A stretch of 64,000 bases of DNA from Candidatus Latescibacterota bacterium. Its GTDB lineage: Bacteria; Latescibacterota; UBA2968; UBA8231. The stretch's first letter is position 1; every line of letters begins with the position of its first letter. Below are positions 863 to 32,894 of this stretch, one piece after another. Under the pieces are notes generated by a model that worked only from the letters and a program-made list of their open reading frames with translations, was not told the DNA's origin and searched no databases. The position numbers and the translations under genes are program-made. The stretch spans positions 704,001 to 768,000 of the forward strand of contig CBDCSU010000005.1 of the NCBI GenBank assembly GCA_965221775.1, given 5' to 3'.

Positions 863-2503
863 TTGAACCCCTGCCCGCCCTTGGTCCAGGCCTGGCAGAG
901 AACCGGGATCCTCTCCGTGAAACCAAGCCCTGACCGCTGCCTCCAGGAGAAGCGGAGCATCTCTTCTCCCCCAGCCGAGGTCAGGACGAGGCGCCTGAAG
1001 CTCTACGCCATTGCGGCGGCTTGTCCCTGCCTCGCCTCCCTCTGTGGCTGCACCGACGGGAGCCTGTCTCCATCCCCCGAGTCTCCATACTCGCTGGAGA
1101 TCATCGCACCGGAGCGCGCCAGAGTCGGTGAATCCCTGCCGGTCGTAGTTCGGGCCACGGATGGCGAGGGCCGCCTCGACCCAGGGGTGAATGTCGAGGA
1201 TCGGATCCGCTCGGAAGGAGAGATCGAGGCCATTGCGTTGAAGAAAGGTCTGGGCTCGGCTTCCCTGGTAGCTCGCGACAACGGCACTGGACGCCTCTCC
1301 CTGGAAGTGGCGGGAACATCAAGAGTCGTCTCCATGCCGGATTCGATCCCCGTATTGGAGTACTCGGGACAGCTGGAGCCGGGCGACCATCAATGGGACC
1401 GGTCCAGGGACCGTTACGTTCCCGGACACCTGGTCGTCCCCGCCGGAGCCACCCTGTCCATAGACGAAGGAACGCGCATCCTCCTTGGCCCCCTGGCCAA
1501 TATCACCGTTCACGGCCGCTTGCTCGCCCGCGGAACCCTGAGGCGCCCCATCGTGTACCTGGCCAAGGAGCGGAACAGACCCTGGGGAGGCATCGAGGTG
1601 GACGAGGGAACCGCCGAATTCACCCATACCTTCTTTGTCAACGGCGGGGCAGATGCCGGGAGAGTCTTCGGCCATTCGAACAGTCAGCCCGTTCTCATGG
1701 CTCGGAGGGCGGAGGTAGCCCTGTCGGCCTGCTTCTTCCTCGACAACCCAGGCAAGGCCCTCGGGGCCTGGGAGAGTCACGTCACTGTCGACCGGTGCCT
1801 CATGACACGGTGCGACACCGGGGGGGAATTCTCCAGGAGTGTCGTCCTCATTTCCTCTTCCCACGTCATCGACATTCCCAACGGCGACGGCATCCCCGTG
1901 GATGACGACAATGACGGCCTCTACTTTCACTCCGTCCATCCCCATGATGCCACTCCCTCCATGGTGAGGGACTCCTTTCTCATCACCGGGAAGGACGACG
2001 CCATAGATCACAACGGCGCCCTTCTCGAAGTCCGCAACTGCTGGCTGGAAGGGTTTGCCAATGAGGGGCTGGCCGCATCCAACGCCAATTGGGTCAGGAT
2101 CTTCAACACCGTGGTCAGGGGATGCGGCCAGGGCATCGAAGCGGGCTACGGATCCCCCCGGGTCATGGTCGACCATTGCGTAGTCGTAGAGAACGAGGTG
2201 GGACTGCGCTTCGGAGACTCCTATGACTGGGGAGCCCAGGGCCGGATGGTCGTGTCGAACTCAATCGTCTACGACAATGCCGACAATGTCCTCAACCACG
2301 ACCGGAAGACCGGCCAGCCGGTGCCGGGGGGCATCACCATCACCTACAGCCTGGTGGAAGACGCCGAGCTCGATTCGTCGGCCACGGTCTGGCCGGAGAG
2401 GCCCATCTTCGACGAGGACTTCTTCCTTCTGCCATCCTCGCCAGGCAAGGGCCAAGGTATGGATGGCACGGATATCGGCCTGGTCGATCCCTCGGGTCCC
2501 TGA
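863..2503 (+). CDS. Secreted/lipoprotein with right-handed parallel beta-helix repeats
   Basis: Hydrophobic/Cys N-terminal segment (LYAIAAACPCLASLCGC), LVVPAGATLSIDEGT..PWGGI, DDDNDGLY, DDAIDHNG. True start uncertain (TTG 863, GTG 917 or later). Confidence 0.65.
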   Translation: MNPCPPLVQAWQRTGILSVKPSPDRCLQEKRSISSPPAEVRTRRLKLYAIAAACPCLASLCGCTDGSLSPSPESPYSLEIIAPERARVGESLPVVVRATDGEGRLDPGVNVEDRIRSEGEIEAIALKKGLGSASLVARDNGTGRLSLEVAGTSRVVSMPDSIPVLEYSGQLEPGDHQWDRSRDRYVPGHLVVPAGATLSIDEGTRILLGPLANITVHGRLLARGTLRRPIVYLAKERNRPWGGIEVDEGTAEFTHTFFVNGGADAGRVFGHSNSQPVLMARRAEVALSACFFLDNPGKALGAWESHVTVDRCLMTRCDTGGEFSRSVVLISSSHVIDIPNGDGIPVDDDNDGLYFHSVHPHDATPSMVRDSFLITGKDDAIDHNGALLEVRNCWLEGFANEGLAASNANWVRIFNTVVRGCGQGIEAGYGSPRVMVDHCVVVENEVGLRFGDSYDWGAQGRMVVSNSIVYDNADNVLNHDRKTGQPVPGGITITYSLVEDAELDSSATVWPERPIFDEDFFLLPSSPGKGQGMDGTDIGLVDPSGP

Positions 2504-2521
2504 ATCTCCACGCCCACCCGG

Positions 2522-4762
2522 ATGCCGGTTCGCCTGATTCAACAGCTCCGGGGCAAGGTGGGCCGCCCTGCTTCTTCCGTCCTGGGCGCCTTGCTGGCCC
2601 TTTCCACCAACCTTCCAGCGCCGGCCCAGGAGGGCGGGATCGAGGAGTACCACATAACCTGCGATCCCGACAGCTTCTCCTACATCTACGAGAACTGGAA
2701 GCGCGACCACTACGTCCCGATACACCTCACCCATCGCGGACGGACCTGGCGCGACGCGGAGATGCGAATCCGCGGCGACAGCTCCAGGGAGCTGCCCAAG
2801 AAATCACTCAAGATCCGCTTCCCCTCCACGCCCTTCCATGACGGCAATGACAGGATCAACTTCAACGCCGAATACCTGGACCCCAGCTATCTGCGAACGG
2901 TCCTGACCAGTCGCCTCTTCAGGGACACTCGACACCCGGCCTTCCTGGCCGAACATGCGCGCCTCTTCCTCAACGGAGCCTTTCTCGGCCTCTATGTGAA
3001 GGTTGAGAACATGGATGAGCACTTTCTCAGGCGCAATCGACTGCACAGGGGCGGCAATCTCTACAAGGCGACTCTCGATGGAGCCTGTCTGAGCACGATG
3101 GATGACGCCAACCACCATTGGGAGAAGAAAACCAATGAGAGTGAGGACCGCGAAGACCTGCGCAACTTGATCTTTCTCATCAACGCGGTCCCGGACAAGG
3201 AGTACCTGAACTTCTCGCACAGCTATCTCGCGTACGACGGGATGGTCAATATCATCGCCCTGAACATGCTCCTTTCCAACGGCAGCACCTACTACCACAA
3301 TTACTACATGTTCCATGACATCATGGGCACCGGGAAGTGGTCCATGTTTCCCTGGGACACGGACCGGACCTTCAGCCGCTACGGCTGGAACCTGCCATAC
3401 CATCAAAGCGGCCAGCCCCGGCACCTGCACCGTTGGGACAATCCCTTCCTCGAGCGGGCTCTTCAGGACGAGACGATACTTGGCGACATCAGGAGTCGCA
3501 TTGACCAGTTGAGCCTGACCTGGTTTTCTCCGGGGCACCTCTTCCCCATCATGGACAGCCTGGAGGTCCTCCTCGAGTCCACCATTCCTCTCGACAGGGC
3601 AGACGACGTGGCCGGCCTTGCGCAGTGGAGAAGCCACATGGCGGAGGACCGTGCGTACATCGAATCGCGTCATTCCCGTCTCGAGCGACAGTTCGAGGAT
3701 TGGCCGTCTCCCTTTGGCACCCTTCCCCTGCGCTGGATCGAGGATGACCCCTGGCTGGCGTGGCGGTCCTCCGAAGGGGCCTCCACCTACACCCTCAAGT
3801 ACGGCAAGGATCCGCAGTTCCTGGACAGCGACGTCCGGGTGGCAGAGGGCTTGACGGACACCGCTTTCGCCCTGCCCCCGGGATTGCCCCCAGGACGGTA
3901 CTTCTGGAACGTGGAGGCGATCAACAGTCACGGCTCCATGGTCGCCTTCGACAGCCGATCCACCTTTGCTCTGCCCCGGAGGCCGGTACCGGGTGAGCGC
4001 CCGGTGATGATCAACGAGCTCAACTATCACTCTGCCGACGACTTCGACCCGGGAGACTGGGTGGAATTGCACAACCCCCACGCCCGGTCTCTCGATCTCT
4101 CCGGGTGGTATCTCAAGGACGGCAGGGAAGATCATGTCTTCTTCCTTCCCCGTTCCACCTTCATCGTCGGAAAAGGCTACCTGGTCCTGTGCCAGGAGAA
4201 GGAGGACTTCCTGGCCCTCTTCCCCGAGGTGGAGGCCTGCCTGGGGGGGTGGGACTTCGGCCTCGGGCGCTACGCGGAATCGGTCCGGCTCTTCGACGCC
4301 GGCGGCAACCTTGTCGACTCTCTCACGTACGGCAGCGAGGCTCCCTGGCCGTCCGAAGCCAACGGGACAGGCTCCACCCTGCAACTCGTCGACCCCGGCC
4401 TGGACAACTCCCTCGCAGCCAACTGGGGGTTCTCCGGACCCTACGGGACCCCGGGAGCATCCAATGCTCCCGTCTCCCTGGAGCCGGGAGTGGCCCTGAG
4501 GAGCTATCCCAACCCCTTTGGCCGGTCGGTTACTCTCCTGTTTGCTCTCCAGGAGGGCGCACGATGCAGCGTCGCGATTGTTGACATCCGTGGAGCGGAG
4601 GTGGCCAAGTTGGTGGATGAGTGGAGGCCGGCAGGTCTTCATCAGGTCGACTGGGATGGATACGACGGGGAGGGGAAACGGGCGGCCAGCGGCGTGTATC
4701 TGGCGCGCCTGAGCCTGGCAACGGGAAGTGTCAAGAGCTCCAAGGTGGTCCTGCTGAGGTAG
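2522..4762 (+). CDS. CotH kinase family protein with lamin-tail domain and C-terminal FlgD-Ig/sorting domain
   Basis: Signal peptide; RIRGDSSR..KKSLKI, FNAEYLDPSYLR, HNYY, PWDTD; VMINELNY..DWVELHN (LTD); SYPNPF..WDG..ASGVY. Confidence 0.85.
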   Translation: MPVRLIQQLRGKVGRPASSVLGALLALSTNLPAPAQEGGIEEYHITCDPDSFSYIYENWKRDHYVPIHLTHRGRTWRDAEMRIRGDSSRELPKKSLKIRFPSTPFHDGNDRINFNAEYLDPSYLRTVLTSRLFRDTRHPAFLAEHARLFLNGAFLGLYVKVENMDEHFLRRNRLHRGGNLYKATLDGACLSTMDDANHHWEKKTNESEDREDLRNLIFLINAVPDKEYLNFSHSYLAYDGMVNIIALNMLLSNGSTYYHNYYMFHDIMGTGKWSMFPWDTDRTFSRYGWNLPYHQSGQPRHLHRWDNPFLERALQDETILGDIRSRIDQLSLTWFSPGHLFPIMDSLEVLLESTIPLDRADDVAGLAQWRSHMAEDRAYIESRHSRLERQFEDWPSPFGTLPLRWIEDDPWLAWRSSEGASTYTLKYGKDPQFLDSDVRVAEGLTDTAFALPPGLPPGRYFWNVEAINSHGSMVAFDSRSTFALPRRPVPGERPVMINELNYHSADDFDPGDWVELHNPHARSLDLSGWYLKDGREDHVFFLPRSTFIVGKGYLVLCQEKEDFLALFPEVEACLGGWDFGLGRYAESVRLFDAGGNLVDSLTYGSEAPWPSEANGTGSTLQLVDPGLDNSLAANWGFSGPYGTPGASNAPVSLEPGVALRSYPNPFGRSVTLLFALQEGARCSVAIVDIRGAEVAKLVDEWRPAGLHQVDWDGYDGEGKRAASGVYLARLSLATGSVKSSKVVLLR

Positions 4763-4864
4763 TGGCCGGCCTCCGGGTGGACGCCAAGGAGGTTCCATGG
4801 TACTCTTGAAGCGCCTTCCCTCCTTCCACGCCATAGCGAGCGGCCCTTAGGGAGTCATTGTCTG

Positions 4865-5545
4865 ATGGATAGCCTGTTGCTCGATTTCGGGACGATCAAG
4901 CTCCACTGGAACATGGTGCTGCTCTCTCTCGTTTTCGCTTTCTGCCTGTCGAGCGTCATCGCCCTTGTGTACGAGTGGACCTTCCAAGGCCTGTCCTGGT
5001 CCCGCGGTCTCATGCAGACCATGGTGCTGGGCAGCATCATCACTTGCCTGCTCATGATCGCCATCGGCGACAATGTGGCACGAGGCATCGGCATTGTCGG
5101 ATCCCTGGCCATCATCCGCTTCCGTACCAACCTTCGCGATCCCCGGGACCTGGTGTTCCTCTTCGCCGCCCTCGGCGCGGGCGTCGCCTGCGGGGTGCAG
5201 AGCTACCTGGCAGCGACCTTCGCAACGGTCCTGTTCTGCATGATCGCCGTAACCATGTACCTGTCTCGATTCGGTACTCGGATGAAGTACGATGGACTCG
5301 TGCGTTTCCAGATCCCGGCGGGACCGACCATTGCGGCCCAGGTGGCCGGGATCCTGCAGGAAATACCGAGGACCTTCGGCCTCGTCACGATGCGGGACGT
5401 CGCCCAGGGCGATCTCGTCGATTGCACCTACCAGGTAAAGCTCTCCGACGAAGCAGACTCCACGCGATTGATCGAGGCCCTCGGGCAGATCGAGGGCATC
5501 CGCGGGTTGTCCTTCATGAACCACACCTCCGCCCTGGAGGTGTAG
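4865..5545 (+). CDS. DUF4956 membrane protein
   Basis: Several TM helices; IGDNVARGIGIVGSLAIIRFRTNLRDPRD signature; soluble C-terminal domain. Confidence 0.85.
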   Translation: MDSLLLDFGTIKLHWNMVLLSLVFAFCLSSVIALVYEWTFQGLSWSRGLMQTMVLGSIITCLLMIAIGDNVARGIGIVGSLAIIRFRTNLRDPRDLVFLFAALGAGVACGVQSYLAATFATVLFCMIAVTMYLSRFGTRMKYDGLVRFQIPAGPTIAAQVAGILQEIPRTFGLVTMRDVAQGDLVDCTYQVKLSDEADSTRLIEALGQIEGIRGLSFMNHTSALEV

Positions 5546-5548
5546 TCC

Positions 5549-6574
5549 ATGAAGCGATGGCTGACGAGGAATGCCTTCCATGTTCTGTGGGTGGCGGCCC
5601 TTCTCACCGCAGCCTACGGCTACCGGAGATGGCAGGCCGATCCCTACCTGATCGGCACGGTCGTGGCGGGAGTGCAGTCGGTGGGCGCGCGCGAGGGAGG
5701 CACCATCCAGGAGGTTCTCGTCGTCGTCGGAGAGGAGGTGGCGGCGGGCCAGGTACTCGCTCGCCTGGACGCCTCCGACCTGCAGGCGGAACGCCGGCTC
5801 CGTGCGGAAGAGCTCGCCTCGCTGGAGTCGATCGCCGCTGCCGACCGCCGTCGGTACAGCGTCGAGTACGACCTGCTGCGCCTGCGCCTGTCCGAACAGT
5901 ACGCGGCCGTCCAGGCCGGCGAGGCCGAGCTCGACGCCCTCAGCCGGGAACTCGAGGCACTCGTGTCAGCGGAAAGCGCCGGCCTGGGACACGATCGCGA
6001 GTTGACCCGCATGTCGATTCGCCGCGACGCCCTGGCCCGCTCCGTAGCCGAGCAGTCGGCCCTGATGCGGCCCGAGGTGCTGAGGCTCGACACGGAAGAT
6101 TCGGATGCCTTCGGCGACAGCGTCATGGCCTCCCTTCTCGGCGACCGGGTAGAGCGCCTGCACGAGGTCCGCCAATCGCTCACCCTGATCGATCAGCGCA
6201 TCGAGTACCGGACGATCCGATCGCCCTGCGCGGGTCTTGTCTCCGAGATCCTGGCTCTTCAAGGCAGTACCGTGGAAGCCTTCATCCCCGTCGTCACCGT
6301 GGTGAGCCCCATCGTCAATTCGGTGCAGGTGTACGTTCCCGAGACGGACGACCGGCCGTTGGCCGTGGGACAGGAAGTGGAAGTGATGTCGAAGCGCTCG
6401 AGCCTCTTCGATGGCCGCGGCACGATCGACTTCGTGCATCCGGGGTACTCACCGATGCCGGAGAGGCTCTGGCTCCGCGGGCAGATGTTGTGGGCGAGGA
6501 AGGCCCGAGTGATCCTTGAGCCGGATCACCAACTGCTGCCGGGCGAATCCGTGCGCGTCCGTCTTGTTCGGTAG
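5549..6574 (+). CDS. HlyD-family membrane fusion protein (periplasmic adaptor)
   Basis: N-terminal anchor, lipoyl half-motifs (GTIQEVLVVVGEEVAAGQVLARLD; IRSPCAGLV), coiled-coil hairpin, LLPGESVRV end. Confidence 0.85.
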   Translation: MKRWLTRNAFHVLWVAALLTAAYGYRRWQADPYLIGTVVAGVQSVGAREGGTIQEVLVVVGEEVAAGQVLARLDASDLQAERRLRAEELASLESIAAADRRRYSVEYDLLRLRLSEQYAAVQAGEAELDALSRELEALVSAESAGLGHDRELTRMSIRRDALARSVAEQSALMRPEVLRLDTEDSDAFGDSVMASLLGDRVERLHEVRQSLTLIDQRIEYRTIRSPCAGLVSEILALQGSTVEAFIPVVTVVSPIVNSVQVYVPETDDRPLAVGQEVEVMSKRSSLFDGRGTIDFVHPGYSPMPERLWLRGQMLWARKARVILEPDHQLLPGESVRVRLVR

Positions 6575-6590
6575 GCGGGAGACGGGCGCC

Positions 6591-7886
6591 GTGAAGTCCG
6601 GCCGGCTCTTCCTCGCCCTGGCCCCTTTCGCCATGCCTCTCTGCACCGCCGCAGCTTCGGCCGAGTCCAGCGCCGAGAGCCCCGGGACTTCGGATGGCGA
6701 GTTGCGGCTTACCATCGAGCAGACGGTCGCCTTGGGCCTGGGCAACAACCCCCGCCTCGGTTCCCTCGACCTCGAGTCCGACATCCTGGCCCACCGCATG
6801 CGCTCTTTCGACTGGGTGGACAATCCCCAGATCCGTGTGCGCAACCTGTCCCATCGGTCCGACGCCGCCCCCTTCGACGAACTCGAGATCGGCCTCCGCT
6901 GGCGTCCTCCCGCCATTGGGGAGGCCAAGGTGCGCCGACAGCGGCGGACCGTTTCCTTCTGGGAGCTCAAGGTGGAGGCCATTCGGCAGCGGCACTGGCT
7001 GGCGTCGCGAGTGCGCCGGTCCTGCGCGGACGTCACCATGTACTCCCAGTTGGCCCGCCTCGCCTCCCAGCGGATTGAAGTCGAGACCCAGCGGATCGCC
7101 CAGATCGAGACGATGGTCGAGGTCGGACGCCGATCGATCGTCTACTTCACCAAGGCCAGGATGGCCGTCGCCGAAGCGCGCCAGAATCACCTTCGGATCC
7201 TGCACGCGCTGGGCGAGGAAAGGCGGAGATTGCGCCGGCTTACCGGGATCACCCGGCCGATCCGGGTCATCTCCGAGCCGGTCCCCGAAATCCTCCTGGA
7301 GGAAGATCAGCTCCTCGAGCTGGCCTTCGACAACCGGCCGGAGATCCGGCTGGCCGAGGAACAGCGACAGCTGGCCCTCGACCGCAAGGCGCTGGAACGC
7401 TGGCGACTGTTGCCGCAACTCTCCTTCCTCGAGGTGTCCCGCCACGTTGAGCGGTCCCGGGACGACTGGCACGAGTGGAGGTTCGGCCTGGAGCTGCCTC
7501 TCTTCAACCGCAATGCGGACAACCTGGCCGGCCTCTCCCTGGCCGTGTCGGGGAGCGAGCTCGGCGTCCTCGGCATTCGGGAGCGGATTACGGACGAAGT
7601 CCGGGAAACACTCTCCGACTACACCGAGGCATTGCTCGCGCGCAACCTCGCCCGCCGAGAGGGAGAGGCTCTCATCGAAGCCGCCTCCCGCGTCATCTCC
7701 GGCACACACGATCACGCCACCGTGCCCTCGGATGAAATCCTGGAACTCGAGCGAATGATCATGGCTGCCCGGGTGGCCATCACCGAGAGCGAGCGGGATC
7801 TGGCCCACGCTCTCTACTTCCTCCATTACGAGCTGGGCCTCGGAGATCCCGAGGTTCTCCTCCGGGAGCCCGGCCATGGCGAGTGA
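6591..7886 (+). CDS. TolC-family outer membrane efflux protein
   Basis: GTG start at 6591 gives a signal peptide; LTIEQTVALGLGNNPRL, AFDNRPEI, GLELPLF motifs. Confidence 0.8.
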   Translation: MKSGRLFLALAPFAMPLCTAAASAESSAESPGTSDGELRLTIEQTVALGLGNNPRLGSLDLESDILAHRMRSFDWVDNPQIRVRNLSHRSDAAPFDELEIGLRWRPPAIGEAKVRRQRRTVSFWELKVEAIRQRHWLASRVRRSCADVTMYSQLARLASQRIEVETQRIAQIETMVEVGRRSIVYFTKARMAVAEARQNHLRILHALGEERRRLRRLTGITRPIRVISEPVPEILLEEDQLLELAFDNRPEIRLAEEQRQLALDRKALERWRLLPQLSFLEVSRHVERSRDDWHEWRFGLELPLFNRNADNLAGLSLAVSGSELGVLGIRERITDEVRETLSDYTEALLARNLARREGEALIEAASRVISGTHDHATVPSDEILELERMIMAARVAITESERDLAHALYFLHYELGLGDPEVLLREPGHGE

Positions 7887-8646
7887 GCCAGCCGCGGCCC
7901 ACCGCTACGAGCTCAAGTACACGGTCACCGAGCACCAGGCGGCCGAGATTCGCGACTTCATTCGCCCCCTTTTCTCGCTCGACGGCAACGTTCCCCCCGA
8001 GCAGGGCAGCTACACCGTCAACAGTGTCTACATGGATACTCCCGGCCTGCGCTTCTACCACGACACTAGGCTCCGCCAGTTGCTGCGCTTCAAACCCCGG
8101 ATCCGCTACTACGGAACGAAGGAAGTGGACTCCCTCACCCTGGAGGTCAAGTACCGCCACCACCGCACCGTCTGGAAGGCCCGGCAGAGAATCGCAACGA
8201 CTCAGTGGCCCCAGGTGCTCGAGACCACCAGGAGCGACCGCATCTCTCCGAGATTCGGGACCTTGCCGGAATCCTTCGTCGAGGTACACCACCTGTACGG
8301 CACGGAGCCGGTGCTTCATCTGCGTTACCATCGCGAGCCCTTTGTGAGCGAAGTGGACACCTATGGACGCATCACCTTTGACCGCGCCATGCGCTACCGT
8401 CTCCTGCGTGGTTCCCATGACATCTTGTGCCACGATGGTGAGTTGACCTACTACGACGACGCCGTTACCGCCCAGTGGGGCGAATCCCCCGTGGTCCTGG
8501 AAATCAAGACGGAATCCCTCGTTCCCTTCTGGGCCCTGGATCTCATCAAGCGCTTCTCTCTCGTGCAGCGGGGATACTCCAAGTACCGTTACGTCATCGA
8601 CCATTGTCTCGAGCGAGCCGGAAGCGGCAACGACATGGGGCGTTGA
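7876..8646 (+). CDS. VTC-domain (CYTH-like polyphosphate polymerase domain) protein
   Basis: RYELKY, SVYMDT, KPRIRYY, LEVK, RITFD, VLEIK, SKY motifs; overlaps the TolC stop. Confidence 0.88.
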   Translation: MASEPAAAHRYELKYTVTEHQAAEIRDFIRPLFSLDGNVPPEQGSYTVNSVYMDTPGLRFYHDTRLRQLLRFKPRIRYYGTKEVDSLTLEVKYRHHRTVWKARQRIATTQWPQVLETTRSDRISPRFGTLPESFVEVHHLYGTEPVLHLRYHREPFVSEVDTYGRITFDRAMRYRLLRGSHDILCHDGELTYYDDAVTAQWGESPVVLEIKTESLVPFWALDLIKRFSLVQRGYSKYRYVIDHCLERAGSGNDMGR

Positions 8647-8659
8647 GGCGAGGCTCAAG

Positions 8660-11317
8660 GTGGCAAGATTGTGCGGCAATCTCCCTGACGGAAGGCATCG
8701 GGCTCGCGCCTTCTTCTTTTTCCTCACTCTTCAAGCCTCCATCCTTCCAGCTGCTGACCCACAACTCAGACTCCCGGTATATCATCTGACTATCGATCCC
8801 GCCGACCATGACGCCCTGGAAGAGTCCCCTTACAGCGACACCCGGTATCCCGCTCAGTTCACCTTCGGAGGACAGACCCACGAGTGCCGGGTACGATTCA
8901 GAGGCGCCACGGCCCGCAAGTACGACAAGAAGAGCTGGAAAGTCTGGTTCGAGGACCGCCGCAATCCGCTCGGAGTGAGGGAGATCAACCTCAATGCCGA
9001 GTATACCGATCTCTCCTTGATGCGCAACGCCCTGGCCATGGAGCTATTCGAGTCCCTGGGGCATCCAGCCCCTGCTACCCGGCACGTCAGCCTGATGGTC
9101 AACAAGCAGTTCAAGGGCGTCTTCGTTCACGTGGAGGAGATGGACCAGGATTTCCTGGAACGTTTCAACCTGGAGCCCGGCCACCTCTTCAAGTCCGAGA
9201 ACCACGGGGGCAACACGGCGCCGTTGCTGGACTTCGACAACTACGCCGCCTCCTGGAACAAGAAGGTAGGCGATGAGTCGGACTACACGGATCTGCAGCG
9301 CCTGTTCAATCAGCTGCTCTACCTGTCGCCCGAGGATCTGGAGGCGCGGCTCCCACATCTGGTGAACGTAGACGGCGCTCTACGCTACTTCGCCATCGCC
9401 TATGCGATCTCCAGCTTCGACTCGGTAACGAAGAATACCCTGCTCTATTTCAACCCGGAGGGACGGCTGGATCAGATGATGCCGTGGGATCATGACGCCT
9501 CTTTCGGCAACCATTGGACGGGGGAGTACCGATCCTATTTCGAGACCACCTACTTGTACTTCTCTTTCCGGTATCACCTTCTGTTCCAGAGGTTGATGGA
9601 GTACGACAGCTTCCGTCATGCCTTCTGGGAGATGGTCCATACGGTCATAGGCCGCGGTTTCCGTTCGTTGGAGGCTGAGATCGACTCGACGTACGAGACG
9701 ATCAGGTTCGACGTGTACCAGGATGACTCCAAGTTGGGCACGAATGACGACTTCGACCGGGAGATCTCCCGCCTCAAAGGGTTTCTGAGCGCAAGGAGGT
9801 CCTTTCTCACCGACTTTACCTTCTTTGAGAAGGAGCCCTTGTCGGATCTGTACTGCTCCACTCCCTTCCCCGGAGACCGTGGGGACACGGACGGCGTGGT
9901 TTTTCGAGCCCGTTCCCCCGTGCCCCAATCAGTATTCGTCAGGTACACCACGGACCTGACTTCCTACAGAACGCCGGGCCTGGAAATCACCGTGAGGAAG
10001 CTCGCCTTGTTCGATGACGGCCATCACGATGATCTGCAGGCGGGAGACGGGCTATACGGAAACCGCCTCGTGCTGCCGGCGGGGTTTACCGGCCTTGTCC
10101 CCTATGCCTTCGGGGCCGGAGAGTACAGCTATCCACCCAACGGGCTGTACTATGTGAATCACCGGGCCTCGAAGAGTTTTGCCCTGAATGCAAGCCGCGC
10201 CACCAGGCGGGACTATGAAGACTTGCGGATTGGAGAGGTCTATGCCCTGCGAGAGGCCTTCTTCGTCGACCTGGTCAATGAGGGCGAGGTGCCGCTGGAC
10301 CTTGCCTACTGCAGTTTTCAATCTGGTGACTATTCCAACCGTTTCATGTTTCCCCCGGAGACTCGTCTTGCCCCGGGGGACAGCCTGGTTCTCTCCTCGA
10401 ACAGAGACGTTGCCAAGGCCCTCTTTCCCCTCACCTCGGTCATTGGTAATCTCTTCTACGCCATTTCCCCCGGCGATACGATGAAGGTGCTGGATCCTTC
10501 CCTGGCAGCCCTGACATCTCGCGTGAACCGGGCTTACGGCAAGATCCATCTTCCCTCTCCCGCAATCGTCATGAACGAGATCAACTATCATTCCAGGGAT
10601 GACCTGGATACGGGGGATTGGGTCGAGCTCTACAATTCGGGTGACTACCCGGCCGATCTCTCCGGTTGGTCCTTCAAGGACGGAAACGACCAGCATTCCT
10701 TCGTGTTGCCCGATCCCACTCTTCTTCAGCCCCGGGGATTCCTGGTGTTGTGTCAGGATCGGAGGGCCTTGGAACTCATCTCCTAGGTCCCTTGTATCGG
10801 AGACTTCGACTTCGGATTGAGGAACAGCGGAGAGCTGATTCGCCTGTACGACCGTCATGGGTTGCTGGTCGATTCGGTCGTCTATGGGGATAGTCCACCG
10901 TGGCCGGAAGAGGCAGATGGCGACGGGCCCACACTGGAGCTGCGCCACCACGATCTGGACAACGCCAACCCCGAGAGCTGGATGGCCTCCCTCTCTGCGG
11001 GGGGGACCCCGGGCGCGATCAACAGTGCCGAGAACCCTCACGGTACGGTGCCCTTCACTCTCTCGGAGTCGACTCCCAATCCGTTCTCCTACACGGTCGC
11101 CTTCGACCTCGACCTCGGCAGGAATGCGCAGGTCACCCTTGCGGTCCATAACACCCTTGGCCAGCGTGAGGAGGTTCTGGTCGACAGGCTCGTCCCCGCC
11201 GGACGTAGCCACTTCACCTGGACCCCCGGGGAGAGGGGGGCTGGAGTCTACCTCTTCGCCCTTGAGTTGGACGGGCGGCTGGAAGCGGTGCGGAAGGCCG
11301 CATACCTGAGCAAGTGA
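8660..11317 (+). pseudogene. CotH kinase family protein with LTD and C-terminal sorting domain, interrupted by in-frame TAG at 10784-10786
   Basis: RFRGATAR..KKSWK, LNAEYTDLSLMRN, FDSVTKN, PWDHD; DDGHHDDLQAGDG motif; ORFs 8660-10786 and 10817-11317 share one frame and read ELIS*VPCIGDFDFGLRNSGE through the LTD. Confidence 0.8.
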
Positions 11318-11371
11318 GTCCGGCGGCGCAGGTCTCGACGCGCCGGGCCGGCCGCTTGGGAATTCCCCGCC

Positions 11372-13450
11372 CTATGATCCGAATCCGAGGGTGCCGCGGA
11401 GGCCAGGCTTGGCCTCGCACTCGGCGCGCAGCAATCCTGCCAATCCCTCGGGATCGCGCAGGTGGCCGAGGATCTCCGCCTTGCGGCGCACCACCGCGAA
11501 GTCCCCCGGCGTCAGGTTGACGAGGGCCTCGACCTCCGGCGGAGCTTCGAGGTCGAAGAAGGCGCGGAAGGCCGCTCTCGACTGGACGGGGGTGAGGTAG
11601 TCCAGGGAGACCTTGAAGGTGAAGCGCCGCAGGGTGGCGGGGTCGAGGTGCTCGCCGAAGTTGGTGGTGCACGCGAAGGGCAGGGGATGGCTCTCCATCC
11701 AGGTCAGCATCTCGTTGACCTGGCTCACCTCCCACGAGCGCACGGCGCCGCGGCGGTCGGCCAGCAGCGAGTCGGCCTCGTCGAAGACGAGGATCGACTC
11801 CTCGGCGCGGGCCTCGGCGAAGGCGGCGGCGATCTGCTGCTCGGTCCCCCCCACCCACATCGACATCAGGTCGGAGGCCCGCTTCTGGGTGACCTGGAGT
11901 CCAAGGCGTTCGGCCAGGTAGCGGACGAAGGCGCTCTTGCCGGTGCCGGGCGGGCCCTGCAGGCAGAGGGAGAACCGCTTGTCCCCGGTTGTTTCCAAGC
12001 GTCCGGCGAGCCCGGCGGGGTCCACGTCGGCCTGGATCAGACCGAGGTCGAACCTCTCCGGCGCTCCCTGCGCCGCGGGGGGTCTGTCGCCCGAGATCAC
12101 CCGGGACAGGCTGCGCACGCCGCGGCGCACGGCCGCCAGATCGCCCCCGCACAGGCCGGCCGCGGCCACGGCCCCGGAGGCCATGCCGGGCGCCATGTCG
12201 AACTCCCGCGCCAAGGAGCGCGCGTCATCTTCCGTCGCCTCGATGCCGTGACGGTCCAACTCGCGACTCCAGATTCGCGCCCGGGTCCGGCACGGCGGCG
12301 GGCTGAGCTCCAGGGCGAAGGTCATGCGGCGCAGGACGGTGGGACAGGTCTCCCGGGCGGAGTTCGAGGTCCACAAGGTGGGCACCGGCGCGCCTTCGAG
12401 GAGGCGGTTCATGTAGACCTTGGAACCCCGTGCCCGGAGCTTGGAGGAGCCGGCGGGGTGGAACGGCATCCAGCCCCCGTCCGGGTCGGAGAGCAGGTCC
12501 TCCATCTCGTCGAAGAGGAGGAGCGACCCCTTGCCACCTGCCAGCAGGCGCTGGGCGAAGCGCAGGTCCTGGAGGCGCTCGTGCCGGGCGGGCTCGTCGC
12601 CGTCCTCATCGGCCTCGCCGACATTGTAGAGGTTGGCCCCGGTCCGGGCGGCCAAGGTCCTGCAGAACTCGCTCTTGCCGGTCCCCGGCGGCCCGTAGAC
12701 CAGGACGTTCACCCCCCGCGCGCCGGAGCGCAGGGCGCCCTTCACGACCTCTTCGATATGGTCGCGCGCCTCCGCCACGTGATCGAAGTCCGACCACTCC
12801 AGCTCTCCCGGCGGCGCCGAGTCGAGCAGCAGGCCGCGTACATCCAGACCGCTTTCGTCGGGGAGGTGGACCAGCCGGTGCAGCCTCTTCACCGGCGCAA
12901 GGTCGCCGTCGTAGTCGACGGAGACGAGGCCGGCCTTCATGAGCGGCGCATCCGCCGTGAAGCGGGTCAGGAAGGCGCCGGAAGACAGGCCCGAGAGGTA
13001 GGCCAGGTAGGGGTTGGTGACGTTGAGAACCAACCTGTGGCGGCGGAGACCATCACCGACGGCATCGATCAGTGACTCCAGGGCCGGCTGCGAGCGGTAG
13101 CGCAACAACAACTCGAGGATGGCCACGTCCTCGGGCGCCAGGTTCATCTCCCGGCCGAGAAGGCGGAGCCGCTGCGCCGTCCGGTCGGGCGGCGCCCCTT
13201 CGCAAGCGGAGTGCTTCCGTTCGAGAGCCTTCCTCAGCCGCTTCCATTTCCGGGCGGTGAGTTTCTTCTCGAAGGGGTTCTCCTCGTCCTCCTGCCCTTG
13301 CCCACCGTCGTCGAGATCGAGCAGGTCCAGGTTCTCGCTGACCCACTCGGCCAGGCTCTTCGCGCCCGGAGTCCCGTGGTGAAGTCGCGAGGCGGCGTTG
13401 CTGAGGTAGGAGAACAGGAGCTGACGTTCGCAGGCGCTGAGCATGGGCAT
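11372..13450 (-). CDS. AAA+ ATPase with two AAA domains
   Basis: Two GPPGTGKS Walker A motifs; Walker B LLLFDEMED and ILVFDEADS; TTN..LDPATLRRF; AGGAGG before the ATG. Confidence 0.9.
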   Translation of the reverse strand: MPMLSACERQLLFSYLSNAASRLHHGTPGAKSLAEWVSENLDLLDLDDGGQGQEDEENPFEKKLTARKWKRLRKALERKHSACEGAPPDRTAQRLRLLGREMNLAPEDVAILELLLRYRSQPALESLIDAVGDGLRRHRLVLNVTNPYLAYLSGLSSGAFLTRFTADAPLMKAGLVSVDYDGDLAPVKRLHRLVHLPDESGLDVRGLLLDSAPPGELEWSDFDHVAEARDHIEEVVKGALRSGARGVNVLVYGPPGTGKSEFCRTLAARTGANLYNVGEADEDGDEPARHERLQDLRFAQRLLAGGKGSLLLFDEMEDLLSDPDGGWMPFHPAGSSKLRARGSKVYMNRLLEGAPVPTLWTSNSARETCPTVLRRMTFALELSPPPCRTRARIWSRELDRHGIEATEDDARSLAREFDMAPGMASGAVAAAGLCGGDLAAVRRGVRSLSRVISGDRPPAAQGAPERFDLGLIQADVDPAGLAGRLETTGDKRFSLCLQGPPGTGKSAFVRYLAERLGLQVTQKRASDLMSMWVGGTEQQIAAAFAEARAEESILVFDEADSLLADRRGAVRSWEVSQVNEMLTWMESHPLPFACTTNFGEHLDPATLRRFTFKVSLDYLTPVQSRAAFRAFFDLEAPPEVEALVNLTPGDFAVVRRKAEILGHLRDPEGLAGLLRAECEAKPGLRGTLGFGS

Positions 13451-13895: not shown

Positions 13896-14612
13896 CTATT
13901 CCGCGGAGTTGCGGTCGGTTCCGGGCCACGCCACATGGTCCATATCGCTCACGTCTATGAACACGTCCCTCACGCTCTCCGAGACCCACCTGGTATTGGG
14001 AATGCCGAGATGCTTGGTGGCGAGGGCGATGGCCGCCTCCCATCCTTCCCGTGAAACCGGAGCCCTGCCGCAGACCGTCGTGTCCCCTACGAAGTAGACG
14101 AACACCAGGTGGGCCGGAAGACCGTTCAGTTCCCTGAGCAGGTACAGGTGCGCCAACCTGTTGGTGTACTGGTAGAAGCACTGTGCCCAGTCCGTACCGG
14201 ACTTGACCTTCAGGAACTCCCTCGTCTCCACGAGGGACGCCTTGATTCTCTCGAGGGGAATTCCTGTGGCACCAGTGGGATCGGTATCGAACTCGGGTAT
14301 ATTCGCCTTCGCTTCCAGCAGCAGGAGACTTCCGCCGCTGGTCCGAGCTAGCCCGTCCCATCGTGGTCCACTCCTGGGCCAGAAGTCCCTGAGTTGCCGC
14401 TTGTCGAGGCACACCCCGAGACGCTCCAGGAATTCGTCATCCCTGTATTCGGCGAAGCCGTCGCCCTCCAACGGCGACAGCCACTCGATTTCTTCCCCTT
14501 GACAAAGGCCAGTCTCCTTGATGGCCTTGTCTAATCTGTGGAAACACCGGTTGACCGCGATCTGCAACCAACGCTGGCTGCCGTGCGGGGCTGCGGGATG
14601 CTCTGCCTTCAT
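13896..14612 (-). CDS. Hypothetical protein, putative PD-(D/E)XK nuclease fold
   Basis: FWP..GPRWDGLA....LLLLEAKAN and later YQYTNRL; AGGAGG RBS. Confidence 0.65.
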   Translation of the reverse strand: MKAEHPAAPHGSQRWLQIAVNRCFHRLDKAIKETGLCQGEEIEWLSPLEGDGFAEYRDDEFLERLGVCLDKRQLRDFWPRSGPRWDGLARTSGGSLLLLEAKANIPEFDTDPTGATGIPLERIKASLVETREFLKVKSGTDWAQCFYQYTNRLAHLYLLRELNGLPAHLVFVYFVGDTTVCGRAPVSREGWEAAIALATKHLGIPNTRWVSESVRDVFIDVSDMDHVAWPGTDRNSAE

Positions 14613-14708
14613 GGAGATCCTCCTTGATCGTAGCTGGACTTGGCCCTCTTCACGATAGCAGCAGGCCGTGGAGAGGAGCCACGAAGGGCAGAAAGGTCGC
14701 GAAGCCCA

Positions 14709-15248
14709 TCAAGCCGATCCCGCCCAGATCGCCCGGCGCAGCATCTCCACCGGATTGAAGATGGACCAGGCGCCGTATATGGCGGCGGCCCTTGCGGCTC
14801 CGCCAACGGTCAGCGTGTCAGCCAGTCTTCGGCCGGCCGTGGTGGCGTCCGCCACCGAGGAGTCTGCGGCGGCGTCCCCGATCGCCCTGGCCGCCTCCTT
14901 GGGGACCTCGGCCACGGTGGAGGCGGCGGCGAATGTGCGCCACCTGACCTTCAGTCCGGAAGAGCACTCGCCCCGGGCATCCTTCGCCCAGTAGACAGCC
15001 CACGCCGCGTCCTCGGCTGCCCGGAAGACGGCATGGCTCCCCGCACGTCTGGCAGCCCTTCCAGCAGCCTTGGCGGCGGCCATCCGGACCTCATCGCCGT
15101 CCCCATGGGCCGCACACATTTTCCTCCACTCGCCACGAATCCCCTCCGGTCGGCAAGACCTTGCAGGAAGGGAAGCACAGAGTTCCATGCCCAATCGAGC
15201 AGAGCGTTCAGACGTTCCCGCTTCCGGGGTCCAGATTGAGGTACTCAT
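14709..15248 (-). CDS. Ala-rich helical hypothetical protein
   Basis: ATG 15248 lies just downstream of the second WYL-type box; low-complexity AARA/AAWA segments. Confidence 0.45.
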   Translation of the reverse strand: MSTSIWTPEAGTSERSARLGMELCASLPARSCRPEGIRGEWRKMCAAHGDGDEVRMAAAKAAGRAARRAGSHAVFRAAEDAAWAVYWAKDARGECSSGLKVRWRTFAAASTVAEVPKEAARAIGDAAADSSVADATTAGRRLADTLTVGGAARAAAIYGAWSIFNPVEMLRRAIWAGSA

Positions 15249-15299
15249 GCCGTTCGCGTGACGCTTCTCCCGATTGACGCGTGCCCGACGCCTGAGGCG

Positions 15300-15333
15300 A
15301 ACTTGGTGCACCCCTGCGACAGATCACGTCGCA
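15300..15333 (-). promoter_or_regulatory. Putative WYL-activator box (perfect TGCGAC-N7-GTCGCA) overlapping the WYL stop codon
   Basis: 15315-15333 TGCGACAGATCACGTCGCA; minus strand TGTCGC-N10-CAAGTT. Confidence 0.6.
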
Positions 15334-16301
15334 CCCTCCTCCCCCAACGCGAGGGCCGCCCGTATCTCCGCCCGAACCGCCTCGCGCAGCTCCTCGGGCT
15401 CCAGCACCTCGGCGGCGGCGCCGAAGCTGAGCACCCAGCTCCGGATCTCGAAGAAGCCACCCGCCCGCAGGCTCAGGACCACGCGCCCGTCGGGCAGCTC
15501 CTCCAGTTTCTGGCTGGGGTGCCAGATGCGCTCCCGCACGTAGGGCGCCTGGTCCGCGGCGAAGCGGACCACCACGTCCATGGGCTCCTCGTACGAGACC
15601 CCGAAGGCGTCCCTCACGCGCTCGTCGATGGGCAGGTGGTCGGGGGGGTCGAACTTCTCCTCCGTCACCACCACCTTCTCGAAGCGCTCCACGGCCTGGG
15701 TGATCAAGCGGTCGTACCGGGGCACGCGGGAGATCACGTACAGGCCGCCGCGGTACGGCAGGAAGCGCAAGGGCTCGATTCCGTACTGTCCGGCCTTCGT
15801 GGCCCTGGGTGACCGGTAGCTCACCCGGCAGACGCGGCGCTTCAGCATGGCCTCGTCCAGTTTCTCCACGATCTCCCGGGCGTCCTCGTAGGGCTTGTAG
15901 CCCCGGGCCAAGGGCACGTACGCGTCGGAGGCCCGCTCGAGGAACCGCCGCATCTCCGGGGACATGGCCGCGGTGATGCGGCGGACCACCGACCGCAGAT
16001 GCTCGCCGAAGGGCGTCCCCGCCAATCCCAGGCCCGCCCGCTCGGCGAAGATCATGGCCGCCACCTCCATGACCGGGAAGTTGAAGGGCAGACCGGTCTC
16101 CTTCAGCAGGTTGTAATAGACGTGCTGATCGTCACGGCGCTCTTCGCCAAGCACGAACCCGGCCTCGCGCAGGTGCCAGATGTCACGCTGGATGGTGCGC
16201 CTGTTTACGCCGTATTCCTCCGCAAGCTCGGGAACGTTTGCCCCGAAGCGCCGGGCCTGCAGGGTCCTCAGAATGTCCAGCTGTCGAACGACCTGTCTCA
16301 T
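15324..16301 (-). CDS. HTH-WYL-WCX transcriptional regulator (PafBC/DriD-like)
   Basis: wHTH ELAEEYGVNRRTIQRDI; WYL region IEPLRF...GLYVI; WCX RERIWHPSQ..WVLSFGAAAEVLEPEELR. Confidence 0.9.
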   Translation of the reverse strand: MRQVVRQLDILRTLQARRFGANVPELAEEYGVNRRTIQRDIWHLREAGFVLGEERRDDQHVYYNLLKETGLPFNFPVMEVAAMIFAERAGLGLAGTPFGEHLRSVVRRITAAMSPEMRRFLERASDAYVPLARGYKPYEDAREIVEKLDEAMLKRRVCRVSYRSPRATKAGQYGIEPLRFLPYRGGLYVISRVPRYDRLITQAVERFEKVVVTEEKFDPPDHLPIDERVRDAFGVSYEEPMDVVVRFAADQAPYVRERIWHPSQKLEELPDGRVVLSLRAGGFFEIRSWVLSFGAAAEVLEPEELREAVRAEIRAALALGEEGAT

Positions 16302-16313: not shown

Positions 16314-18680
16314 TCACCTAAGCAACAGCATGCGCTTGTGGATGGCCCACTTCCGCGTCTCCAGGCGGTAGACGTAGACGCCGCTGCCGGCATCCCGTCC
16401 GAACTCGTCGCGGCCGTCCCAGGACAGGCGGTGCTCCCCGGCCCCTGGGGCCTGGACCTGAATCTCCCGCACCACCTGGCCCGACAGGTTGTAGATGCGC
16501 AGGCGCATCGACTCGCCCGCCAAGTCCACCGGCACCTGGAAGGGGATCACCGTGGAGGCGTTGAAGGGGTTGGGCGCGTTCTGCTGCAGCACCGGGCGGG
16601 CGGGGCCCACTCCCGGTCGGATCTCCCAGGCCTGGTCGTCCACCACCACCACCATGGCCTGACCCAGTTGCGCGAAGAGGGCCAGCTCCTCAGGCTGGCC
16701 GGCCAGCCCTTCGTAGAGTTGCCTCGGCATGAGCGGCCGGTAGGCCTGGTCCATCCACACGTCGTCGCGCAAGACGAAATCGCGGCCCATCCAGTGGGCC
16801 GTGGCGGCCGTCTCCTCCACGTCCGTCGTCGGCCCGAAGTCCTCGTCCCCATCGTCCGCGGCCCCATCGCAGGTCGCGCAGGTGTCCTCGGAGTCCGGGA
16901 AGGCGCCCCCGCCGGCAAGGTCGCGCGGCTCGGGGTTGACCTCCACGCCCTCGTCCGGGGCAAAGAGTGACGTGCGCCGGGTCACCAACCGGTAGTCGAG
17001 CCCCAGGGCCAGGATGTCGTCGAGCAGCTCCGGCTCGGGGCCGAAGCGGGCGATCTGCTCCTCCAGGGCCAGCACCTTCTGGTAGGCCCACAATCGAGGC
17101 AACAATTCCAGGGAGACGTCGGTATGGGTGAATTCCAGGGAAAAGTCCTTCGATACGTCCCGGTCCCCCACCTGGCCGCTCACGCTCAGGGTGAAGAGCC
17201 CGCCCTGCTGGTAGCGGCCCACCTGGAACAGTTCCCGCCCCGCGGCCAGGGCCTCCACGCCCCGGGGATGCACGTCGTGGATGTCCGCCGAGCCGAAGGA
17301 CAGCTCGTCCACCAGCAGCACCGGGAAGGTGAACTCCTCGAACAGCACCCGCAGCGCCTCCTCGATGTCCCCCTCCTCCGACAGGAAGTGCGCTTCGCCG
17401 CCGTGCTCCTCGGCCAGCGCCGTCAGGAAGTTCTGGTCCACGTCGCGGCCGACGCCGATGGTGAACAGCCGCGCTTTCCCTCCCGACCACTGCCCCACCA
17501 ACTCGCTCAGCGGCTCCAGCTCGATCTCGCCGATATTCGGCAGCCCGTCGGTGAGGAAGATCACGTGGTTCACGCGCCCGGCGGGGAAAGCCTGTTGCAT
17601 CGCCCTTCCGAGACCCGCCTCGAAGTTGCTCACCCCCAACGCGTCCTGCCGGTTGATGAAGGCCGCCGCCGACTCCCTGTTCGACGCGTTGGCCGGCACC
17701 GGCGCCGCGGCGAAGGCGTCGGCCCGGTGGCTGAAGACGACGATGTTGAACAGGTCCTTCTCCACCAGATTTTCCAGCGCCGCCACCAGCGCCCCCTTCA
17801 CCGCCCCCAGCTTGCCCCGCTGCATGCTCGAGGAGATGTCGATGACGAAGGTCAGGCTGCGCGGCAGCGGGCCCTCATCGGTCAGCTCCGGCAGCGGCGG
17901 CAGCCACAGGGCGTAGTAGCCCAGGGCCTCGTCCTCCTCCGGCGCGAAGCTGAGCACCGTCGGCAGCAGCAGATCCCCGGTCCGCTGCAGGCTGAGGGTG
18001 AAGTCCTCCCGCGGCGTCAGGTCCTCGTCGCCGTAGAACACGTTCGCCGTGTGCGCATCCGGCCGGTCCACCTCCGTGATCCGCGGCAGGCCTGAAGTGG
18101 TGGCCTCAAATGCGTGCTGACTGCGCACGTGGGCGCGCAGCACGAACAGCTCCATCTGCAGCGCCTGGTCGGTCTCCGGCGCCAGCGGGAAGGTGTAGTC
18201 GATGCGGCCGTTGCGCGCGTCGAGCAGCTGCATGTACTCGAACTCCACCCGGCGGCTGCCCTGGGCCGGGAAGGGGAAGATGCTCAGCCGGAACTGGTTC
18301 GGCGTCACCTGCTCGATCAGGGCCGGGTCGATGCGCTGGCGCACGATGTCGTCGTAGACCTGCCGCGCCTCCTCCTTCTCCATGATCAGCCCCTGCACCC
18401 GCTTGTCCCCGATCCACAGCACCAGGTCGGTGATGATCGCCCCCTCGGGCAGGGTGAACTCGTAGATCCCCTCCACCTCCCACTCCGCGTGGTTGGTGAA
18501 GATCTGGTCGGTGCGCGTGCGCGCCACCCGCTCGTCGATGCGCACCTCCACCGTGACCGACGACAACTCCAGGTGCTGGCGGCCGTCGTCGCCCACGCCG
18601 GTGTACACATAGCCGATGCCGAGGGCGGGCAGGGGGGTCAGTATCAGGGCGGAGGTGAGTAGAATGAGTCGAAGGTGCAT
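16314..18680 (-). CDS. Secreted VIT + vWA domain protein with C-terminal FlgD-Ig/sorting domain
   Basis: Signal peptide; VIT (EGIYEFTLP..DPALIE..IFPFP); MIDAS DISSS..FLTDG; NAPNPFN..WDGRD..SGVY. Confidence 0.88.
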   Translation of the reverse strand: MHLRLILLTSALILTPLPALGIGYVYTGVGDDGRQHLELSSVTVEVRIDERVARTRTDQIFTNHAEWEVEGIYEFTLPEGAIITDLVLWIGDKRVQGLIMEKEEARQVYDDIVRQRIDPALIEQVTPNQFRLSIFPFPAQGSRRVEFEYMQLLDARNGRIDYTFPLAPETDQALQMELFVLRAHVRSQHAFEATTSGLPRITEVDRPDAHTANVFYGDEDLTPREDFTLSLQRTGDLLLPTVLSFAPEEDEALGYYALWLPPLPELTDEGPLPRSLTFVIDISSSMQRGKLGAVKGALVAALENLVEKDLFNIVVFSHRADAFAAAPVPANASNRESAAAFINRQDALGVSNFEAGLGRAMQQAFPAGRVNHVIFLTDGLPNIGEIELEPLSELVGQWSGGKARLFTIGVGRDVDQNFLTALAEEHGGEAHFLSEEGDIEEALRVLFEEFTFPVLLVDELSFGSADIHDVHPRGVEALAAGRELFQVGRYQQGGLFTLSVSGQVGDRDVSKDFSLEFTHTDVSLELLPRLWAYQKVLALEEQIARFGPEPELLDDILALGLDYRLVTRRTSLFAPDEGVEVNPEPRDLAGGGAFPDSEDTCATCDGAADDGDEDFGPTTDVEETAATAHWMGRDFVLRDDVWMDQAYRPLMPRQLYEGLAGQPEELALFAQLGQAMVVVVDDQAWEIRPGVGPARPVLQQNAPNPFNASTVIPFQVPVDLAGESMRLRIYNLSGQVVREIQVQAPGAGEHRLSWDGRDEFGRDAGSGVYVYRLETRKWAIHKRMLLLR

Positions 18681-18721
18681 GGCGGGGCTCCTTTGGCAGG
18701 AGGGGGACGGCGGAGGTCGGG

Positions 18722-20122: not shown

Positions 20123-20215
20123 GGAGGGCCTTGGCAGGAATATACCACCCGGCAGCCGTGAAGCGATTCGGTTTCTCCCAGGCACGGAGGACCGATCTGC
20201 AGCCCGCCCGGAGGG

Positions 20216-22564: not shown

Positions 22565-22603
22565 CTCTCTATCTCCCGTGCCTCACGGGGAGGACGGTTG
22601 CTG

Positions 22604-23368: not shown

Positions 23369-23520
23369 AGGGATTCCCCGACGGTATAGCGGACCCGCGC
23401 GACACGGATCCGGAGCGCCGCTACAAGATGCTCTGCCGGGACGGGACGGTAAAGCGGAAGCCGGGCGTCGGCCCCCGCGACCACGCAGGTCTCTCGTTTC
23501 CCATCGGCTGAGGATTCTCC

Positions 23521-32882: not shown

Positions 32883-32894
32883 GCCTGCTACCCG

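Follow-up and report, generated by a model that had tools for sequence, protein, structure and literature searches.

A DUF4956-HlyD-TolC-VTC cassette with CotH genes in a Latescibacterota genome: a candidate synthase-coupled exporter of polyphosphate

The window analysed here is a 64,000-nt stretch of the genome of a Candidatus Latescibacterota bacterium (assembly GCA_965221775.1, contig CBDCSU010000005.1, positions 704,001 to 768,000). Seven co-oriented genes on its forward strand, at 863-11317, include a four-gene core which encodes a DUF4956 membrane protein, an HlyD-type periplasmic adaptor, a TolC-family duct and a VTC protein resembling the yeast polyphosphate polymerase Vtc4. This report considers whether the cassette makes and exports inorganic polyphosphate, and for what use. 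The genes, and an in-frame stop codon in the last of them, are as follows.

863..2503, +, right-handed beta-helix protein, probably a lipoprotein (Pfam Beta_helix, E 6e-8; lipobox-like LCGC)
2522..4762, +, CotH1: signal peptide, CotH kinase domain, LTD and FlgD/T9SS-like (type IX secretion system) C-terminal sorting domain (Pfam)
4865..5545, +, DUF4956: five membrane helices, MgtC/SapB fold and cytoplasmic ACT domain (predicted model, Pfam)
5549..6574, +, periplasmic adaptor of HlyD/EmrA type with N-terminal membrane anchor and no lipobox (Pfam/NCBIfam)
6516..7886, +, TolC-family outer-membrane duct, dedicated and divergent (Pfam OEP above cut-off)
7876..8646, +, stand-alone VTC tunnel enzyme with Vtc4 active site (Pfam VTC, E 3e-29; profile; model)
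8660..11317, +, CotH2: signal peptide, CotH domain, LTDs and sorting domain, split by a TAG codon (Pfam)
10784..10786, +, in-frame TAG, codon 709 of 885 of CotH2 (sequence; identical letters in a contig from public run X1)

The positions and tight packing agree with a first-pass annotation of the same DNA. The gaps between the listed open reading frames (ORFs) are, in order, 18, 102, 3, -59, -11 and 13 nt, and the four core genes are joined by the 3-nt gap or by overlaps. The true start of the beta-helix gene is probably at about 995, and that of the TolC gene probably at 6591. Pfam matches along the operon are beta-helix; CotH with LTD and FlgD_ig; DUF4956; HlyD_3/HlyD_D23; OEP; VTC; and CotH with LTD. 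No sigma-70-like promoter, excess of terminators or Rfam match was found in the operon. Pfam searches of the window proteins gave no ABC, RND or MFS gene in or adjoining it, and the sole MFS match among the 30 other proteins is at 40080-41282. DUF4956 is the only operon protein with several hydrophobic segments (four peaks above 1.5, five helices in the model). Two further statements of the annotation, that the duct pair has no pump partner and that DUF4956 is the sole polytopic inner-membrane protein, are therefore upheld.

The core cassette is present twice in the genome. The second copy, on contig C4 (G000:C4:705422-712061; L001:5423-12062), comprises five genes in the order DUF4956-HlyD-TolC-VTC-CotH, whose products are 57-86% identical to those of the window copy; its CotH is intact at 895 aa. 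The window VTC is 93% identical to the copy in genome G002, compared to 76% for its own-genome paralogue on C4, although the G002 copy is at a C4-type locus, which may reflect transfer or recombination. The G+C content of the window operon is 0.58-0.67, against approximately 0.70 for the genome. Upstream of the C4 cassette, at L001:12400-17681, lie the genes for a 1227-aa BNR/Ig/FlgD surface protein and a PorV-like protein. Near-identical DNA was found in sponge metagenomes; symbiont polyphosphate in sponges matters to phosphorus cycling, according to PMC12993501.

Conservation was assessed in two sets of loci, whose related members are not independent. The DUF4956-selected set was the best 80 of 147 relatives in a scan of GTDB genomes, a few of them also in the kin group, and was scored with profiles built from the loci themselves; the taxa named in it are Latescibacterota, Myxococcota, KSB1, Calditrichota, Ignavibacteria, Marinimicrobia and Bdellovibrionota. 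The VTC-selected set, from a Pfam VTC search with long flanks which avoids selecting for the cassette, held 119 loci: 22 of 27 matches among kin, and 40 of 82, 40 of 89 and 17 of 19 in three further phyla assumed to be diderm (two resemble Calditrichota and Myxococcota, judging by shared contigs, and the third has TolC throughout). Of the 354 genome slots searched, 177 contained a VTC gene (19/61, 65/113, 74/151 and 19/29), the groups having been chosen since one member had VTC. HlyD and TolC were both in the gene chain of 63-71 of the 80 DUF4956-selected loci, the range reflecting eight Bdellovibrionota loci scored as TolC-positive by position only, with a gene lacking a family match; six loci, mostly at contig ends, had HlyD alone and three had neither. 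An adaptor was in the DUF4956 chain at 77 of the 80 loci, nearly always as the next gene, and VTC at 66. DUF4956 was in the chain at 114 of the 119 VTC-selected loci. No pump family recurred among the clustered neighbours of the cassette chains. The proposal that HlyD/TolC is conserved beside DUF4956/VTC was thus borne out for this subfamily, and the gene order, repeated in tens of genomes of several phyla, is far beyond chance. Two further observations concern the neighbouring genes. At L117:12462-13613, in Bdellovibrio, a 383-aa gene without Pfam or NCBIfam match lies between adaptor and VTC and is perhaps a very divergent TolC; large PPDK_N (ATP-grasp) proteins recur near the cassette at L093:15042-18158 and other myxobacterial loci (13 profile matches).

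The window VTC is a stand-alone domain of 256 aa with VTC as its only Pfam match and no hydrophobic segment; the SPX domain and the fused membrane helices of the yeast catalytic subunit are absent. A profile of 84 VTC sequences gave significant PDB matches only to Vtc4, Vtc2 and Vtc3 (E 3e-17 to 3g3q) and none to a hydrolase. The model (pLDDT 88) aligns with Vtc4 at Z 19.4 (root-mean-square deviation 4.0, 225 residues aligned), compared to Z of 13.2 or less for other tunnel enzymes. The residues of Vtc4 which bind triphosphate and Mn2+ are K200, R264, R266, K281, Y359, R361, E426, S457 and K458 (10.1101/2023.01.27.525886). All nine are kept in the window protein, as K14, R75, R77, K92, Y151, R153, E209, S235 and K236, and each is kept in 175-177 of 177 VTC sequences. 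Four glutamates separate the tunnel hydrolases from Vtc4 (PMC4641920). At these positions the window protein has R10 and K211, basic as in Vtc4, probably a third basic residue (K101 or R103) and one acidic residue, E12. The TTM/CYTH tripolyphosphatases (ygiF, AtTTM3, SaTTM) share the tunnel fold, and E12 corresponds to one glutamate of their acidic patch, but R10 and K211 replace patch glutamates, there is no sequence match, and instead of the ExExK four-glutamate start the window protein begins RxExK. Fold, profile and residues therefore make a polymerase likelier than a triphosphatase, which is our better guess rather than a certainty and agrees with the earlier expectation that VTC would not be a mere triphosphatase.

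Like the yeast VTC complex (Vtc4/Vtc3/Vtc1; 3g3q, 3g3r, 7ytj, 8i6v), the cassette has the tunnel fold, the nine catalytic residues and a proposed coupling of synthesis to passage; it differs in having neither SPX nor fused membrane part, in its MgtC-fold partner, in the extra E12 and in the added adaptor and TolC. Reviews assign polyphosphate synthesis to VTC in eukaryotes and to PPK in prokaryotes (PMC13318637, PMC12526157 and PMC10657179). The present genome also encodes PPK1 and PPK2, so storage polyphosphate need not depend on VTC. At L102:3043-6482 and on G085:C161, VTC is part of an open frame of approximately 1150 aa, the remainder of which has no Pfam match at E 1e-4.

The 226-aa DUF4956 protein is modelled as five helices followed by an ACT domain. 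Its Pfam MgtC match (E 5e-4, 20.8 bits) is below the cut-off of 31.4, while the membrane part gave a TM score of 0.76 against MgtC clusters, predicted models being compared with one another, and the ACT-like C-terminal domain matched 7qa5 with Z 8.7. Only ACT matches were obtained in comparisons with the PDB, which barely covered the membrane part, and no Vtc1 match was listed. The triplet R85-F86-R87, at the end of helix 3, is invariant in 164 DUF4956 sequences, with R85 and R87 invariant in all locus classes. DUF4956 thus has the membrane fold of MgtC/SapB and an ACT-like C-terminus, and is set apart by the RFR motif, its fixed partnership with VTC and the sub-cut-off Pfam score. The channel of the yeast VTC complex contains rings of basic residues (10.1101/2023.01.27.525886).

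The best PDB match of the adaptor is EmrA (4tko, E 6e-29), and among 83 adaptor relatives 78 have a hydrophobic anchor and two a lipobox-like sequence. Among the OEP matches listed for the genome, those of the cassette TolCs are the weakest. EmrAB-TolC and type I secretion systems likewise combine a membrane-anchored adaptor, EmrA being the nearest, with a TolC-family duct; the cassette chain, however, contains no MFS, ABC or RND component, and in its place are an MgtC-fold protein of 226 aa and an enzyme resembling a polymerase. A pump might nevertheless be encoded elsewhere, with VTC cytoplasmic and DUF4956 acting as an MgtC-like regulator or scaffold. The genome contains 15 adaptor-like ORFs and approximately 10 other TolC genes, OmpR-type two-component genes lie near many cassette loci, and MgtC, with which DUF4956 has its fold in common and its ACT domain to match, is a protein-binding regulator (PMC6658541). 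This arrangement is unlikely in view of the near-constant placing of the adaptor next to DUF4956, the absence of any co-occurring pump, the invariant arginines at the membrane edge, and the correlation between DUF4956, VTC and HlyD distances (rho 0.75-0.81 in 136 sets, without control for the species tree).

Inter-protein mutual information from 84 paired rows (effective number 46-61), too shallow to be used as evidence, was below the shuffled maxima for DUF4956-HlyD and marginally above them for the other two pairs. Prediction of a complex of two-copy DUF4956 with the adaptor scored 0.07 and 0.02 against a mark of 0.32 and, run without folded controls, is evidence neither way. One DUF4956-adaptor fusion among 7998 scored candidates was rejected; it is out of frame in the ACT region and was taken as a frameshift artefact.

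The route beyond the inner membrane varies. The chains of the 119 VTC-selected diderm loci contained HlyD and TolC (47), HlyD only (38), TolC only (two), a Porin_O_P-family gene (six) or none of these (26). Duct genes were absent from all six records fetched from the plasmid collection (of nine), among them all five monoderm loci, and from the NELoc-2 gene table of C. perfringens, the monoderm comparison consisting of those five loci plus two papers; two of the five lie among glycosyltransferase genes. The idea that HlyD/TolC occurs in diderms only therefore stood in the monoderm sample, but diderm cassettes occur both with and without the duct: 34 of the 119 loci have no HlyD. As the exits vary while VTC and DUF4956 nearly always stay together, the fixed unit is VTC with DUF4956, the duct being a diderm add-on.

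Among the alternative exits, the six Porin_O_P-family genes (three verified by Pfam) are all in HlyD-less chains. At L029, L030, L042, L175 and L240 such a gene shares the chain with CotH, VTC and DUF4956, and at four of these loci a 200-aa protein without Pfam match precedes VTC. A CotH-beta-helix protein with no sorting domain was found at 15 of 34 HlyD-less loci compared to 0 of 85 HlyD loci. All 17 proteins of that type carry a hydrophobic stretch N-terminal to the kinase domain, where anchor and signal peptide are not distinguishable, and in most the catalytic position is occupied by His or Glu. His replaces the catalytic Asp at L159, L161-L164, L171, L174, L203, L209 and L213, and these proteins possibly use a different phosphotransfer chemistry. 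The restriction of CotH-beta-helix proteins to HlyD-less loci suggests a choice of two partners at the outer face of DUF4956: an adaptor, or an enzyme acting directly there. The alternative exits, namely the porin-family genes and the CotH pair beside a porin at L240, argue for a cargo that contains phosphate and is used outside the cell.

Such a cargo could also travel inwards: phosphate or short polyphosphate would enter through the duct or porin and DUF4956, and VTC would trap or cleave it in the cytoplasm. Scavenging of this kind would suit the Porin_O_P-family genes, the role of MgtC in promoting phosphate uptake through PhoR (PMC6658541), and the propeller domains (SdiA-regulated, phytase-like or DUF6929 matches) which are fused to or flank the adaptor in 68 of 97 HlyD+TolC loci. 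It is nonetheless improbable, since VTC resembles a polymerase, secreted kinases use up a phosphodonor and do not release phosphate, and no porin or fused-propeller homologue of the cassette-family type was found in the source genome. Adaptor-TolC ducts, moreover, are efflux devices.

The likeliest user of an exported product would be the CotH pair. In B. subtilis CotH the catalytic residue is D228 and the Asp of the PWD motif is D251 (PMC7821199); this numbering was transferred from the alignment with B. cereus CotH (5jd9) by way of the 23-residue spacing. CotH2 keeps both residues and CotH1 has Ser at the D228 position with the PWD Asp kept, so that CotH1 is, by its sequence, a possible pseudokinase. 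The kinase domain, which matches 5jd9 with E 1e-22, is shared with Bacillus CotH, whereas the cassette proteins are secreted multidomain forms in a non-sporulating diderm. A Ser-type CotH was accompanied by the CotH2 type at 7/7 loci with that motif, which suggests a kinase/pseudokinase pair. Ser-type and Asp-type domains are fused in one 1400-aa protein at two similar loci, L031:3901-8121 and L236:2651-6892, and at L240 the same Ser/Asp pair follows porin-VTC-DUF4956. The beta-helix gene adjoins a Ser-type CotH at L031 and L045 and is fused to it at L148; for the beta-helix protein itself the only Atlas leads were under 0.9.

Both CotH proteins begin with a signal-like sequence and end in a sorting domain common to 102 ORFs (in CotH1 the TIGR04183 score of 22.6 bits is just below the cut-off of 23, with the FlgD_ig match above its own), and the genome encodes SprA (SprA_N match). 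These features make the type IX route likelier than export by way of TolC. That HlyD/TolC exports CotH, as type I secretion without an ABC transporter, is suggested by their co-location and by TIGR01843/TIGR01844 matches which are weak and far below cut-off; besides the signals just described, the lack of a nearby CotH at most cassettes makes it highly improbable.

The TAG at codon 709 removes the sorting domain of CotH2. A contig from run X1, possibly the source sample, covers 5140-11400 with 0 differences, and close CotH2 orthologues have Q or G at this codon; for these reasons it is probably a real nonsense change. Read-through was rejected because there is no tRNA-Pyl among 56 tRNAs and the orthologues have Q or G. 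At L045, L050 and L229 the cassette-adjoining CotH2 orthologues are frameshifted, stopped or truncated, through either decay or long-read error. CotH was found in 18 of 19 VTC-positive relatives compared to 5 of 42 VTC-negative ones, a strong linkage by genome although a loose one by gene neighbourhood, and five relatives, three of them nearly closed, have CotH without VTC.

The CotH-VTC-DUF4956 trio is already in print without a function, as the first-pass annotation had noted; the arrangement with a duct is undescribed as far as our searches reach, the HlyD/TolC form not being found in literature searches whose coverage excluded subscription journals and supplements. In the available sections of the papers concerned, cotH-PPP-DUF4956 is an accessory set of Gram-positive pel operons (10.1101/768473) and the trio is carried by C. 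perfringens NELoc-2 (PMC2879425). These trios share the three families in one operon with no function assigned, and differ in being monoderm, without adaptor or TolC, and beside polysaccharide synthases. One pel paper reports finding the trio nowhere but in pel loci; in the present sample it is common elsewhere. In S. intermedius, deletion of the MgtC/ACT (DUF4956-like) gene or of cotH cut aggregation by more than 50% in sputum medium, and the two mutations changed Pel levels in opposite directions (PMC12345266). Modification of a surface glycan might therefore be the purpose, VTC making or cleaving a short phosphoanhydride (PPi, PPPi or a phosphorylated intermediate) and CotH phosphorylating a polysaccharide. 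These mutant effects on Pel level and aggregation would agree with it, as would the trios beside pel genes, beside GT2/HEAT genes and inside a glycosyltransferase cluster, the retention of E12, and the occurrence of beta-helix and Cthe_2159 partners. We give this explanation a low probability, as the surroundings of the diderm cassettes contain no recurring glycosyltransferase family, none was found in the window, and K236 and the basic residues at the exit are retained. It differs from polyphosphate export mainly in chain length and acceptor.

The cassette lies outside the VTC complex, having no SPX or fused membrane part, and outside the tripartite pumps, having no pump; most likely it works like the former through the hardware of the latter. 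That it is a synthase-coupled exporter of inorganic polyphosphate has in our judgement an even chance of being correct, and to this end we infer the polymerase activity, the channel, the assembly, the direction of transport and the user. Cytoplasmic VTC, going by its fold and residues, would polymerise phosphate from ATP while docked on a DUF4956 oligomer, whose invariant arginines would lead the negatively charged polymer through the inner membrane, by analogy with the basic rings of the yeast channel, the proteins not being homologous. The membrane-anchored adaptor and its own TolC would then conduct the product through periplasm and outer membrane, polymerisation doing the work of a pump. 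Use at the cell surface, likeliest by the CotH pair exported separately via type IX, is the weakest step. In relatives the same core may serve other exits, namely an anchored CotH-like enzyme, a phosphate-porin-family gene or monoderm wall-side machinery. The fuller version, in which polyphosphate secreted through the Vtc4-like polymerase, the MgtC-fold channel and the TolC duct is the phosphoryl donor for a secreted CotH kinase/pseudokinase pair, is possible, though doubtful. The supply of CotH by the cassette, as first proposed, is favoured by the presence of all three CotH genes of the genome within its two cassettes; elsewhere CotH is often apart, and the S. intermedius knockouts differ from one another.

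A number of findings weigh against polyphosphate export or against its link with CotH. The fold of DUF4956 is that of MgtC, which acts by binding PhoR and not as a channel (PMC6658541). E12, a hydrolase-type glutamate without Vtc4 counterpart, is E or D in 176 of 177 VTC sequences. In a crude comparison of net charge, TolCs of the cassette family are no more basic than the other TolCs of the genome, and OprO/OprP porins are uptake channels. Of the 119 VTC loci, 34 lack HlyD, 26 of these having no duct gene of any kind, and a further 38 have HlyD but no TolC next to it. The split between anchored CotH and HlyD amounts to only 2-3 changes on the DUF4956 tree. CotH is within 7 kb at only 30 of 80 DUF4956-selected and 52 of 119 VTC-selected loci; conversely, of 22 metagenome loci selected by CotH2 only three had VTC and DUF4956, all of them among the 12 loci longer than 9 kb. 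In the window copy and in three relatives the core genes are intact beside a broken CotH2. Finally, for the VTC (polymerase-gene) knockout in S. intermedius no decrease in aggregation is reported in the available sections of PMC12345266, unlike the CotH knockout, which argues against a strict VTC-to-CotH dependence in that organism.

If polyphosphate export is correct, DUF4956 and bacterial VTC would acquire a function, and a tripartite exporter would be defined in which a polymerase takes the place of the pump. A source of phosphoryl donor would also be indicated for the secreted CotH kinases of non-sporulating bacteria, with extracellular phosphorylation fuelled without export of ATP, and bacteria would have a counterpart or precursor of eukaryotic VTC.

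In the remainder of the window, a two-domain AAA ATPase gene (11372-13450, -) is convergent with the operon; its best NCBIfam match, far below cut-off, is the anti-phage ATPase IteA. It is followed at 13896-16301 (-) by genes for a 238-aa protein without Pfam match and an HTH-WYL-WCX regulator, and the three may form a small defence island. Type I restriction-modification genes (R, S and M) extend over 9 kb at 29577-38853 (+), together with a DUF433 gene, in a stretch of lower G+C. VIT-vWA-FlgD, leucine-rich-repeat and FG-GAP repeat proteins, of kinds common in host-associated bacteria, are encoded at 16314-26229 and 50587-52566.

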